Source of the DNA: an uncultured Gemmatimonadales bacterium
GTDB lineage: Bacteria; Gemmatimonadota; Gemmatimonadetes; Longimicrobiales; RSA9
NCBI GenBank assembly: GCA_963798085.1
Contig: CAWCRS010000007.1
Location: forward strand, 1,728,001 to 1,792,000
Length of the DNA: 64,000 nt
Direction: 5' to 3'
Part shown: positions 4,817 to 9,116 of the stretch, piece after piece
Position numbering within the stretch: the first letter of the stretch is position 1
Layout of the letters: every line of letters starts with the position of its first letter
The notes under the pieces: model-generated
The model's input: the letters and a program-made list of their open reading frames with translations, nothing else
Told to the model about the DNA's origin: nothing
Database searches by the model: none
Program-made: the position numbers and the translations under genes

Positions 4817-4845
4817 AGCTTATCCTTTGATCGCGCTAAAGTCAA
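4817..4845 (-). promoter_or_regulatory. sigma70-type promoter of HU with ~170-nt 5'UTR
   Basis: TTGACT-N17-TAAGCT. Confidence 0.55.
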
Positions 4846-5961
4846 GTGCCTGTTTGGGTTCGCTGCATCGCCGCCAGGAAACGATCGAACAGATACAGCG
4901 AGTCATGCGGCCCCGGCGCAGCCTCCGGATGATACTGTACGCTGAATACCGGCAGTTCGCGGTGTTCAGCCCCTTCCATTGTCTGGTCATTGAGATTCAC
5001 GTGCGTCACCCGCAGCCCCGGTGCTCCATTTACGGTATCGGCAGGGCCTCGCCGCACCGCAAACCCGTGATTCTGCGCGGTGATCTCCACGGCGCCATCC
5101 TCGAGCCGGCGAACCGGGTGATTCCCTGCGCGGTGGCCATAGAGCAGCTTGAAGGTGTGCCCGCCGAAGGCGCGCCCCATCAGCTGGTGTCCGAGACAAA
5201 TGCCGAACACGGGAATACCGCGACGCGCCAGCTGACGGATGGTCTCCAATGCGTGCTCGACGGCGCCCGGATCACCGGGCCCGTTGGACAGGAAGAAGCC
5301 GTCCGGTTCCTGCTCGAGGATGGCCTCGACTGCGGTGGCGGAAGGCAGTGTGGTCACGCGACAGCCGCGCTCCGCTAACAGCCGGAGAGAATTCCGCTTG
5401 ACGCCGAAGTCGTAAGCCAGCACGTGAAACCGCTCGTCGCCGGTCGGCTTCACATCGTAGGGCTGCGGTGTCGACACGGCACACGTCAGGTCCAGGCCCT
5501 CCATGTGCGGAATGCGCGAGAATGCGTTGCAGCATTTCCCCGGCGGGCACGCTGTCACCAGCGATACCCGCGCGCATTGCTCCCTGCGAGCGCAGATGTA
5601 TGGTCAGCGCGCGTGTGTCGACCTCCGAGAGGCCGACAATGCCGTTGCGTTCCAGGTACTGCTGCAGCGATGACTGTGCGCGCCAGTTGCTGTGACGACC
5701 GGCGAGTTCGCGCACAATGAAGCCGGCCACCTGCACGCGCGCCGACTCTGCGTCCGCGCTGGCTACACCGTAGTTACCGATCAGCGGGTACGTCATTACC
5801 ACGATCTGCCCCGCGTAGGACGGATCTGTGAGCACTTCCTGGTACCCGGTCATCGACGTGTTGAAAACGACCTCTCCCAGGGTGTCGCCGGCGGCGCCGA
5901 TCAGTTCGCCGTCAAAGCGCCTGCCATCTTCCAGGAGAAGGTATCCGGACTGGCGTTCCAT
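4842..5961 (-). CDS. carA: carbamoyl-phosphate synthase small subunit (frameshift near 5511, likely sequencing error)
   Basis: N-half [25 protein letters not shown] and C-half [21 protein letters not shown] lie in different frames. Confidence 0.93.
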
Positions 5962-6068
5962 GCGTGGGCGGATTCCCGTCTGAGGGTCGCGCGAAACTAG
6001 GCCGCAGCCTGAAGATGTCAAGTCGCACGCAGTTGCGGCAGTGCCTCTGCCCAACCACGATTCCTTCC

Positions 6069-6821
6069 ATGCAGAAGCTGGTCTACATGTACGCTGACGA
6101 ATCGTGCCTGGGAATCCAGTACACGGATCGCGACTCGCCCGGCGGCGCAGCCGGCCTCATCGAGTACTGGCATGTCGACCATTGGGTGCGACGCGACTAC
6201 TGGGTCAGCGAGCCCGCAACCACGAACAACCGCATGGCGCTGCGCAGCGGCATCGAAGGACTTCGTCGCCTGCGGCGCCGCTGTCGCGTGGTGTTCACAT
6301 CGGACTCCCAGTACCTGATCCGCGGGATGCGCGAGTGGGTACACGACTGGTCGCATCGCGGCTGGCGCCGCAAGTCGGGCGCAGTGGAAAATGCGGAGCT
6401 GTGGAAGGAACTGGTCGCCGAAGCCGCGCGACATCTCATCGACTGGCGCTGGGTGCGCGGGCATGCGGACCACCCGCAGAACGAGTATGCCAACATGCTC
6501 GCAGTGCGGGCCGCGCGCACGCAGGATGCAACGGCAGGACTGGTCGAATCGGGTTTCGCCGAGTGGATCGCGTCACAGCAGAGCGATCATGCGCGCTTCC
6601 GCGACTACGTCGCATCCGCGCCGCCACTCGTGGACGAGTTCCAGCCCGGTCGGCCTGTCGACATTCTGAGTTGCAGAACACCAGGATGTTCGAAGCCCCC
6701 AGGAACGACACCTTCGTTACCTGGGGGCTCCATACCGCTGGCGGGAATGTTTCTCTTGTTCCGGATCTCGCCACGTGCGGCGACTCGTCACACTCCCTTA
6801 CCCTCGTCAAGCGGTCTTTGA
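6069..6821 (+). CDS. rnhA: ribonuclease HI, atypical active site; true end probably near 6669
   Basis: [39 protein letters not shown]; tail after about 6665 looks non-coding. Confidence 0.85.
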
Positions 6822-6976
6822 CTCAGGCATCCCGTGACTCACAGGATTCGTGTTGCGGCCAGCGACCCCGCAACCGGCTCGCAGAGGCCGAACTCCTCTG
6901 ACGAGCTTCTCACCGGTCGGTTTCCGTTTCCGGCGAGCTTGCATTCGACAGCAGTTGACCGCCACTGCCGAACGCG
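6692..6976 (-). ncRNA. candidate structured non-coding RNA, family unknown
   Basis: Seven hairpins in series, G-U pairs favour the minus strand, upstream TTGCCG-N18-TAGATT promoter, located between convergent genes. Confidence 0.5.
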
Positions 6977-6982
6977 ACGCGC

Positions 6983-7012
6983 AATCTACTCGCGCGCCGC
7001 TGCGTGCGGCAA
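6983..7012 (-). promoter_or_regulatory. sigma70-type promoter of the candidate ncRNA
   Basis: TTGCCG (7012-7007), N18, TAGATT (6988-6983); first stem begins 7 nt downstream. Confidence 0.5.
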
Positions 7013-7034
7013 GTCTTTCGGGATGTATTCGCCG

Positions 7035-7721
7035 CTATGCGGCCAGTGCGCGCTCGAACACGGCCGCGAACTCTTGTGCGACGACAGCAGCGACGGTCGT
7101 GATGTCGGGCGCCACACCGGTGCGGCGCGCGATGGACGTGACACCGCGATCGCTGATCCCGCACGGGACTATGGCGTCGAAGTAGCGCAGATCGGTATCG
7201 ACGTTGAGCGCGAATCCGTGTGAGGTGATCCAGCCGCTCGACACGCGCACGCCAATGGCCGCGATCTTTTCATTGCCCACCCACACGCCCGTGTAGCCGC
7301 TCACGCGCTGCGCGCGGATGTCGAAGTGCGCGAGCGTGCGCATCAGCGTTTCCTCGAGATCCCGAACGTAGCGATGCAGGTCGCGGCGATCGGGCTTCAG
7401 GTCGATGATGGGATAGCCGACGAGTTGACCCGGACCATGATAGGTCACATCACCGCCGCGTCCGGTTTCGAAGCACTCGATGCCGAGCAGCCCGCGCTGC
7501 GCATCGTCGAGCAGCAGATGCTCCGCGCTTGCCGATGTGCCGAGCGTAATGACGTGCGGATGCTCGAGCAGCAGGAGTGTGTCCGGGATCTCACCCTGGC
7601 GCCGCTGCATCACGCACTGCGACTGCAGCGCGAGCGCCTCGGCGTACGCCACGCGCTGCAGCCATTGCCATTGCAGTGTGCGCGTCGTCGCGGCCCTGGA
7701 GGCAGACAGCGCTGCTTGCAT
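7035..7721 (-). CDS. lipB: lipoyl(octanoyl) transferase
   Basis: [48 protein letters not shown]. Confidence 0.95.
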
Positions 7722-7728
7722 CAGCGAC

Positions 7729-9116
7729 TCAGCCGGCCTGCTCGGGGAAGCTCTCGAGCGACGCCTTGAGCCGGGCGAGGAAGCGCGCGGCGTCCGCGCC
7801 ATCGACGATGCGGTGGTCGTAGCCCAGCGAGAAGAACGCGCGTTTGCGTACAGCAATCGCATCTGCGCCGCCTGACATCGATGACCACGGCACGCTTCTC
7901 GATGGCGCCCGTGCCCAGGATGGCCGCGGTGCCTTCGGGAATGATGGGCATGCCCACGAGCGTTCCGAGGACGCCGGGATTGGTGATCGAGAACGTTGCC
8001 CCCTGAATCTCGTCCGGCTTGAGCTTGCGATCGCGCGCGCGTTGTGCCAGGTCTGCGATGCGCCGCGCCAGCCCCACGAGGTTCAGCTCGTCGCTGTTGC
8101 GTATGACGGGCACGATGAGTCCCGGATTGAGATCCACGGCAATGCCAATGTTGACGTCGCCCCGGTAAATGATGCTCGCGCCCGACACGGTGGAGTTGAC
8201 CATGGGGAACTCGCGCAGCAGCCTCGCCACGGCCCATGCGACGAAGGCTGTATAACTGACCTTTACACCCTGCTGCTCCCACGCGGCCCGCGCTGCTGCG
8301 CGCACGTGGTCGATGCTCGTGAAATCGACCTCCACGAACGAGTGCACGTGCGGTGCAATGCGTTTGGCGCGCACCATGTGATCCGCCGTCAGCCGGCGGA
8401 TGCGATCCATGGGCTGCACCTTGTCGCCTGCGCGTACCGGGAATTCCGGGTGTTGCACCGGTCCGAAGAACGTGCTCCAGAAATCGTCGGCGGCCACCGG
8501 TACGCCTGTGCGGGGAGCTGCCGGCGCCGTGGTCGGGGCTGGCGCCTGCTCGCGCTGCTCCAGGAAGGACATGATGTCGTTGCGTGTCACGCGTCCTGCA
8601 TGACCGCTGCCCTCGACATCGCGAAATGTCGACGCCGTGCTCGGCGGCAATGCGGCGCACCAGTGGCGTCGAGCGGCGCCGCAGTCGATCCTCTGCGCTT
8701 TCGCCGCGTCCGCCGTTGTCCGTGGCGGCGACGCGAGCGGCTGCGGGCTGCGCTGCGGGTGCAGGCGGAACGGGTGTGCGCGCCGGCGTTTCCGTTGCGG
8801 GCGATGCGGGCTTCGCCTCCGCGGCGTGGGCCGGCGGTGCAGGCGCCGCCGTGCCGGCTGGCTTCGCGGCACTCTTTTCGGTTTCGATGAAGGCGACGAC
8901 GGTACCTACTTCCACCGTCTTGCCTTCCGGCACCACGATTTCCGCCAGCGTTCCTGCGGCGGGCGATGGGATTTCCGCGTCGACCTTGTCGGTGGAGATC
9001 TCGAGCAGCGGCTCATCGCGCGCGACGTCGTCGCCCACTTTCTTGAGCCATTTCGAGACCGTTCCCTCGGCGATGGATTCCCCCATCTGGGGCATCGGGA
9101 CTTCGATTCGCGCCAT
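7729..9116 (-). CDS. 2-oxoacid dehydrogenase E2 dihydrolipoamide acyltransferase (frameshifts near 8620 and 7865)
   Basis: Lipoyl domain [14 protein letters not shown]3-binding [29 protein letters not shown], and [15 protein letters not shown] in a third frame. Confidence 0.9.

Follow-up and report, generated by a model that had tools for sequence, protein, structure and literature searches.

A stand-alone gene for a structured RNA of about 293 nt almost certainly lies on the minus strand between rnhA and lipB in the stretch of DNA analysed here (the window; 64,000 nt, G000:C7:1728001-1792000). The RNA folds as nine helices in a hairpin chain with no closing helix, and four long-range pairings, L1 with L6, L3 with J7/8, L4 with J8/9 and L7 with L9 (PK2 and PK3 being the second and third, PK1 and PK4 the first and last), very probably connect its loops and junctions. 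A first-pass annotation of the same DNA had proposed an unclassified minus-strand structured RNA with its own promoter, and folding, covariation, promoter conservation and the lack of an Rfam match all bear this proposal out. The RNA apparently represents an undescribed class among the ornate orphan bacterial RNAs and no variant of any named family. The features of the locus, in window coordinates, are as follows.

6684–6976, minus strand: predicted RNA, about 293 nt, with the 5' end placed from the promoter and the 3' end from where conservation stops
7028–7031, minus strand: the more upstream of two CGAA boxes that form an 11-bp direct repeat, a putative transcription-factor site, present at both copies of the RNA in this genome
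7017–7020, minus strand: downstream CGAA box, 4 nt ahead of the -35 TTG, found in 28 of 51 and 14 of 29 promoter-bearing homologues
7007–7012, minus strand: -35 hexamer TTGCCG, its position kept in homologues
6983–6988, minus strand: -10 hexamer TAGATT, with an 18-nt spacer to the -35
6941–6975, minus strand: P1 hairpin, whose loop L1 GCGGUC (6962-6957) pairs with L6 (PK1)
6909–6937, minus strand: P2, capped by a GAAA tetraloop in this copy
6877–6906, minus strand: P3, whose loop L3 UUCGG (6892-6888) pairs with J7/8 (PK2)
6852–6874, minus strand: P4, of near-fixed length and the most invariant part, whose loop L4 GUCGCUGG (6866-6859) pairs with J8/9 (PK3)
6829–6847, minus strand: P5, a hairpin of variable length, from the alignment
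6802–6827, minus strand: P6, with an internal GA/GA loop, whose loop L6 GACCGC (6816-6811) pairs with L1 (PK1)
6743–6797, minus strand: P8, enclosing P7 and the J7/8 strand CCGGA (6764-6760, the PK2 partner), from fold and alignment
6767–6783, minus strand: P7, whose loop L7 GCACGU (6778-6773) pairs with L9 (PK4)
6734–6741, minus strand: J8/9 CCAGCGGU, the partner of L4 in PK3
6693–6730, minus strand: P9, a terminator-like yet structural hairpin, whose loop near 6712-6708 pairs with L7
6684–6688, minus strand: CAUCC tail, a CAUC tail being present in 28 of 100 homologues
6069–6821, plus strand: neighbouring gene outside the RNA, RNase HI of DEDN type, with a C-terminal read-through that is probably an assembly indel
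7035–7721, minus strand: neighbouring gene outside the RNA, lipB (Pfam), which the assembly joins in frame to an E2 fragment upstream of it

Pfam identifies the flanking genes as RNase H and LipB. The rnhA frame reaches 6821 as assembled, overlapping the 3' part of the RNA on the opposite strand, and reads about 50 codons beyond its usual end: 241 amino acids follow the DESCLG motif here compared with 179–190 in 12 homologues, among which no overlap of rnhA with the RNA was found. Given that carA and E2/lipB nearby are also frameshifted, the read-through over the RNA is probably an indel error of the assembly. The carA gene lies in two frames (window 4842-6054), the E2 gene is joined to lipB by a frameshift (window 7035-9116), and several further genes near these look frameshifted, probably through assembly indels as well. 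The gap of about 350 nt between rnhA and lipB described in the first-pass annotation stands only if rnhA stops near 6669, and is not present in the assembly as it is. A second copy of the RNA lies at C7:1417769-1417941 in the same genome. No conserved reading frame was found in the RNA, with 46 of 104 copies containing no closed ATG frame and the others having frames scattered in length.

The minus strand of about 6692-6976 folds with an energy of -140.2 kcal/mol (z -5.86) and none of 200 shuffled sequences was as good, compared with a z of -2.99 and one of 200 shuffles as good for the plus strand. Among homologues, the sense strand was the more stable one in 98 of 104. The minus strand folds far better than shuffled controls, and the minus-strand orientation of the first-pass annotation is supported. 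All stems named in the first-pass annotation are present, namely P1 to P5 (P4 at 6852-6874), the hairpin at 6767-6783 (its P6, here P7) and the closing hairpin at 6693-6730, while the helices at 6802-6827 and 6743-6797 and the four long-range pairings had been missed. The helices that have to bridge the pairings keep narrow lengths (5–95% range), at 27–31 nt for P3, 25 nt for P4, 12–15 nt for the 5' strand of P8 and 37–45 nt for P9, unlike P5 and P7, whose lengths vary. The four-base loops of P2 among homologues are GACG in 41, GAAA in 13, GAUA in 8 and GAGA in 8. Neither the GGA motifs nor the first AAGCUCG to which attention had been drawn is conserved when homologues are compared.

Alignment A4 consists of 107 matches from 100 chosen loci, giving 106 distinct rows. 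Four false loci, the overlap L168, the cut-off copy L150 and the duplicate L161 were excluded from 80 listed loci, and loci from the unpublished genomes G015, G016, G019, G026 and G095 were excluded from both A4 and A5. In the 106 rows of A4, fitted like the other alignments to the nested helices, 90.0% of cells pair, compared with 71.7% when shuffled and 34–44% with slid partners. Double-sided changes were found in 59 of 62 pairs. An independent metagenome alignment gave 92.4% of cells paired and double-sided changes in 50 of 61 pairs.

Each of the long-range pairings is represented in these alignments. In PK2, 88.5% of cells are paired and each of the six pairs shows double-sided changes. 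PK3 is 97.8% paired, a figure inflated because the pattern scans preselected PK3 words, and shows 12 swaps between G-C and A-U at one position as well as two pairs that never vary. For PK1, the cognate score was 5.11 compared with 4.30±0.08 when permuted (n=104), and for PK4, excluding long P7 variants, it was 5.01 compared with 4.02±0.08 (n=83), with 0 of 5000 permutations as high in either test, although kinship between rows inflates such tests. Both results replicate on new metagenome rows (n=58 and n=34 for PK1 and PK4, respectively). The PK1 word pairs include GCGGUC/GACCGC, ACGGG/CCCGU, ACGAGA/UCUCGU and GCGAC/GUCGC, and word pairs of such diversity in PK1 and PK4 would, despite kinship, be hard to obtain without true pairing. 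In this copy PK4 has just four pairs. Where L6 is a GNRA-type loop, the partner word in L1 is lost in 16 of 17 cases, mostly from one clade, and where L6 is of another type the word is retained in 73 of 83. The fold is thus not uniform, one clade having lost PK1 and other clades PK4. The clade without PK1 (L030, L032, L037, L040, L140, L157, L158, L172 and relatives) has a GNRA-type L6 and a rebuilt, longer 5' part, and the promoter pattern was not found at the usual distance in its members.

Covariation cannot separate pairing within a molecule from pairing between molecules. The four pairings may form within one molecule, with P8, P3/P4 and P9 packing side by side to give a compact, nuclease-resistant and raiA-like structure, and a compact monomer is the moderately favoured prediction. 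A homo-oligomeric ring or cage held together by intermolecular loop pairings, of the kind known from ROOL and GOLLD, is rather improbable. The four covarying loop contacts and the missing closing helix would suit such an assembly, and in ROOL one contact deemed tertiary by covariation turned out to be quaternary (PMC12286853, accessible part). However, the RNA is half as large as ROOL, searches of viral contigs, phages and plasmids gave no convincing copy of it, its helix lengths have a presumed geometry that fits intramolecular packing, and raiA RNA, which is similar in size, is a monomer according to the accessible part of PMC12286853. ROOL and GOLLD share with the present RNA several covarying loop-loop contacts and, as far as the accessible text of the same paper goes, have no known protein partner. 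They differ from it in length, at 659 and more than 800 nt compared with about 290 nt, and the present RNA is chromosomal, with no phage or tRNA-island link seen and no Rfam match; no tRNA was found in the window by ARAGORN.

The closest resemblance in overall form is to the raiA motif, described in the accessible part of PMC10861870 as an RNA of about 200 nt with two pseudoknots and a single copy per genome. Both are stand-alone bacterial non-coding RNAs of 200–300 nt with many covarying helices, a conserved core and long-range pseudoknots within the covarying multi-helix fold, and raiA is without an assigned function in the available portions of PMC10861870 and PMC12286853. The present RNA differs in having four long-range pairings as opposed to two, nine helices without a closing stem, and one to five copies per genome as opposed to one (PMC10861870, accessible part). 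It also belongs to a different phylum from raiA, which is found in Bacillota and Actinomycetota.

When the Rfam check suggested in the first-pass annotation was run, no family reached its gathering cut-off. Searching the window against Rfam 15 at E values up to 10 returned six weak matches, the best at 22.1 bits against a cut-off of 62, and eight homologous loci returned two weak matches, neither near its cut-off; the raiA model was absent from the all-family scans of the window and the eight loci. With tmRNA the RNA shares four pseudoknots and a length of about 300 nt, but it has no tRNA-like domain and no conserved reading frame. The earlier statement that tmRNA and RNase P hallmarks are missing was correct: ARAGORN was negative at the element, and the tmRNA (C7:1551847-1552206) and RNase P RNA (RF00010, C2:100075-100471) of the genome lie at other loci. 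ARAGORN also reported a second, permuted tmRNA at G000:C7:1552113-1552745, overlapping the true one and probably an artefact.

Plus-strand segments had been put forward as resembling 6S ends. Their pairing partner is not conserved, and the genome encodes a separate 166-nt rod resembling 6S, equipped with its own promoter and a U-tailed terminator (G000:C2:146709-146874, minus strand; locus L408, 212-367). This rod lies upstream of queD/folE-like genes, a site at which two relatives (L285 and L286) have comparable RNAs, and its top Rfam match is 6S, at 21 bits under the 46.4 cut-off. The survey of weak 6S matches in relatives that led to it includes the unpublished genome G026. RF00013 gave no match at the cut-off, either at the element or elsewhere in the genome, and five other carriers were also negative; the usual 6S site between zapA and rny (C7:1483185-1483311) is empty in this genome. 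These observations suggest that 6S in this class has changed its location and become divergent enough to score under the Rfam cut-off. A role for the RNA as a substitute for a missing 6S had been favoured because the Rfam 6S was not found and the zapA–rny site was empty, and was dropped once the divergent rod was found on C2.

A related possibility, that the RNA binds RNA polymerase in the manner of 6S or Ms1, is a remote prospect. In its favour are the same missing Rfam 6S and empty zapA–rny site, together with the size of Ms1 RNA, which is similar to that of the present RNA. Like 6S and Ms1, the RNA is independent and intergenic with a sigma-70-type promoter. However, neither the long closing rod nor the central bubble that is the hallmark of 6S was found in the fold or the alignment, leaving no rod-and-bubble mimic of a promoter, and the genome already holds the divergent rod on C2.

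The promoter hexamers TTGCCG-N18-TAGATT are exactly as claimed in the first-pass annotation. A strict promoter and terminator scanner returned no site at the element because the hexamers score just 8 of 12. Conservation of the promoter is seen instead among homologues, where a TTG..YAnnnT pattern lies at the expected distance in 51 of 104 copies compared with a shuffled mean of 2.5 (maximum 7), and in 29 of 61 new metagenome copies compared with a shuffled mean of 1.8. Only about half of the copies with a promoter have the CGAA repeat. Where a second CGAA lies within 5–9 bases, the spacing is exactly 7 nt in 24 of 24 homologues and in 12 of 12 from metagenomes. An 11-bp direct repeat touching the -35 is the binding mode of many two-component response regulators. 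A genome-wide look for the repeat gave five sites, of which two are the promoters of the RNA, and no regulon could be inferred. A third, promoter-like CGAA-N7-CGAA-N4-TTG site lies on G000:C2 near 159106 on the minus strand (locus L283).

Other subtypes of the RNA carry different upstream motifs. In the subtype L136, L177, L195, L024, L130 and L028, a palindrome-like GGGAA..TTC(T/C)C motif replaces the CGAA repeat upstream of the -35. The paralogue subtype L257-L262 carries a GTAAC-N17-GTTAC-like palindrome in its place, as well as a long region, about 150–330 nt upstream of the RNA core, with several words resembling DnaA boxes. These upstream motifs suggest that different RNA subtypes may have different regulators.

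At the 3' end, the closing hairpin is followed by no clear U tract in this copy, as had been noted before, and a U-rich tail after the last hairpin (at least 5 U in 9 nt) occurs in 38 of 100 homologues. Given that the loop of this hairpin is used in PK4, the hairpin would be part of the mature fold. In two soil RNA libraries, from two studies, a relative is represented by one contig each, which spans 6737-6916 or 6720-6917 and departs from the element by 14 differences and 5 gaps. Such contigs are uninformative on strand, ends and level, and the libraries may contain DNA, so that the support for transcription of the RNA is weak. The soil RNA runs contain a small share of words (0.04), and depth was not used for ranking expression.

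To define the distribution of the RNA, model R1 was built from 21 aligned copies, new matches were added, and R2 was built from 43 rows. These searches score few candidates per genome, such that a miss signifies 'not found'. By blastn the element was present in 15 of 24 genomes of its own family and was not found in 16 genomes of two other families, whereas R2 matched 32 of 40 own-family genomes with one to five matches each; the two models and both tallies rest partly on the unpublished genomes G015, G016 and G019. In a phylum sample of 151 genomes, R2 was positive in 21, own genome counted, with family counts of 9/16, 9/31, 1/72 and 1/1 and none in eight other families. Focused R2 searches were positive in 1 of 40 genomes of the large family, and among 40 genomes of a sister family four were strongly and three marginally positive. 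Counts based on R2 may be too low in divergent families. Carriers are numerous among related bacteria of soil and water and often have more than one copy. A pattern scan of a genome collection returned 103 stretches, and of 80 among the matches listed 76 pass R2, with titles naming Gemmatimonadota in 71, unnamed bacteria in 2 and Gammaproteobacteria in 3. Pattern matches titled Archangium, Actinomycetota, Bradyrhizobium and Anaerolineae failed the R2 model. A metagenome pattern scan returned at least 120 stretches, and 68 of 80 listed loci pass R2. In viral contigs, a loose pattern gave 77 stretches, none convincing on the model (best 19.5 bits), and a tight pattern gave two, neither passing (best 10.2 bits); plasmid and phage collections returned no match.

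The three gammaproteobacterial copies (L138, L166 and L192) lie at the same site, flanked by a LysM gene and a PLP-enzyme gene. In a rough tree with an unsettled bootstrap, they fall within the Gemmatimonadota rows. A jump of the RNA into Gammaproteobacteria is probable on this sequence evidence, and a search of 80 genomes from the family of these carriers gave no other copy. The copies sit 20–50 nt upstream of the PLP-dependent (threonine-synthase-like) gene, which is about 50% identical to a gene of the present genome, and the RNA and this gene may have been transferred together.

The genes flanking the 106 copies fall into 96 protein clusters, as called with a simple purpose-made gene caller, and on the downstream side the next gene is convergent in 52 cases and co-oriented in 41, with none in the other 13. 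A fixed role in cis is excluded because neighbours and downstream orientation vary across the copies. A riboswitch or cis leader was likewise rejected, there being no constant position upstream of co-oriented related genes and the functions of the neighbours being unrelated. Among representatives of the 96 clusters, searched with Pfam and including some without a family match, neither a transposase, integrase or reverse transcriptase nor an RNA-guided nuclease was found, and a retron, a group II intron and a transposon guide RNA were rejected on these grounds.

The neighbouring enzyme itself is an atypical RNase HI, as the first-pass annotation had recognized. It is of DEDN type, has replacements at two usual carboxylates (E48 and D134 in E. 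coli numbering) and reads DES in the first motif. Among solved structures, 4IBN, that of LC9-RNase H1, is the closest to it (E 3e-60). The title of the LC9-RNase H1 paper, as it appears in a reference line of PMC4423430, names an atypical DEDN site. RNase HI is present in 129 of the 151 phylum genomes, a tally that includes the unpublished G026 and G095, and is thus the ordinary enzyme of the class, without need for the RNA, which occurs in 21. The suggestion of a partnership between the two is not upheld, and it is highly improbable that the RNA regulates RNase HI in cis or as an antisense RNA or serves it as a dedicated partner. The lipB-RNA-rnhA arrangement recurs in two families and the rnhA frame overlaps the RNA in this assembly. 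However, rnhA lies beside only about 14 of 106 copies (a cluster count of 12 and two missed by the gene caller, one of them that of the window), the overlap is missing from the 12 homologues, and the second copy in this genome sits between genes for a sorbosone dehydrogenase and an M28 peptidase.

It is very unlikely that the RNA spreads through genomes by copying itself as a selfish, non-autonomous mobile element, despite its patchy distribution, the 96 neighbour clusters, the probable jump into Gammaproteobacteria and the existence of near-identical dispersed or tandem copies (88–99.7% identity). The recent duplications span promoter and RNA, and their extension to DNA ahead of the start site speaks against retro-copying. 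Furthermore, copies number at most five per genome, two loci are old and syntenic across genera, the single-strand, G-U-rich pairing is under selection, and the neighbour representatives include none of the mobility enzymes searched for. An empty-site search in the own genome returned two occupied loci and two loose pairs.

Titrating small RNAs of the CsrB/RsmY/RsmZ type have their own promoter with an upstream factor site and occur as several paralogues. The present RNA is like these and other multi-copy titrating RNAs in its independent promoter with an upstream factor site, its paralogues and its variable neighbours. It differs in having no array of GGA loops and in being locked by tertiary pairings as opposed to displaying open hairpins. 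A sponge for CsrA itself is scarcely credible, although this copy contains seven GGA and the genome two csrA genes. CsrA is present in just 5 of 21 carriers and was not found in the other 16, among them eight near-complete genomes. Homologues average 2.0 ANGGA per RNA, the conserved loops are consumed by pseudoknots, and the GGA-bearing loop L2 is a variable GNNR-type tetraloop, such that the GGA-type sponge suggested by the motifs in this copy does not hold.

The leading functional guess is a sponge or scaffold for a partner other than CsrA or RNase H. In this mechanism, the sigma-70-type promoter would drive the stand-alone gene and a transcription factor on the 11-bp CGAA repeat beside the -35 would switch it on. 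A near-invariant core, comprising L4/PK3, the AAG linker and the base of P6, would provide the working surface through which the RNA binds and titrates a widely conserved protein or ribonucleoprotein in trans, with the dose tuned by the one to five gene copies. Any such partner is probably widespread, since the RNA persists in three gammaproteobacterial genomes. Taken as a whole, a compact, regulated, raiA-like RNA titrating a conserved partner via its invariant core is a tentative proposal, judged a little short of an even chance, and the patchy distribution (1/40 and 1/72 in one large family) counts against it.

An unlikely reading of the same core is that the compact fold is a catalyst or a binder of small molecules, with L4/PK3 as the active site or pocket. 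Several positions of the core are the same in all 106 rows, no protein neighbour is constant, and large bacterial non-coding RNAs of established function are mostly catalytic (PMC10861870, accessible part). Against this, no ribozyme or riboswitch in Rfam matches, conservation of at least 90% is reached at only about 35 of the 173 model positions, in a set chosen in part for that core, and several regulated copies per genome would better suit a stoichiometric role. Somewhat unlikely, too, is a protein-free RNA machine in which four interchangeable loop pairings would build an RNA-only ring, cage or catalytic core, switched on by a dedicated transcription factor, amplified into several paralogues and functional after transfer between phyla.

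A prior description of the RNA was not found in a literature search conducted mostly outside subscription papers. The main text of PMC11109978, in its accessible part, does not contain 'Gemmat', and the accessible parts of bioRxiv 10.64898/2026.10.21.760802 and 10.64898/2026.09.15.751765 hold no description, although databases may contain an unnamed cluster. Few large, highly structured RNAs are known from bacteria, and where the function has been solved they often act as catalysts or belong to the core machinery (PMC10861870, accessible part). The present RNA places four covarying long-range pairings within less than 300 nt, with no detectable homology to catalogued families, and natural variants that are missing one pairing or another provide ready-made tests of the structure. 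The small size of the RNA makes it directly amenable to probing, mass photometry and cryo-EM. It belongs to an abundant and poorly studied phylum, and the candidate site for its regulator is sharply defined.
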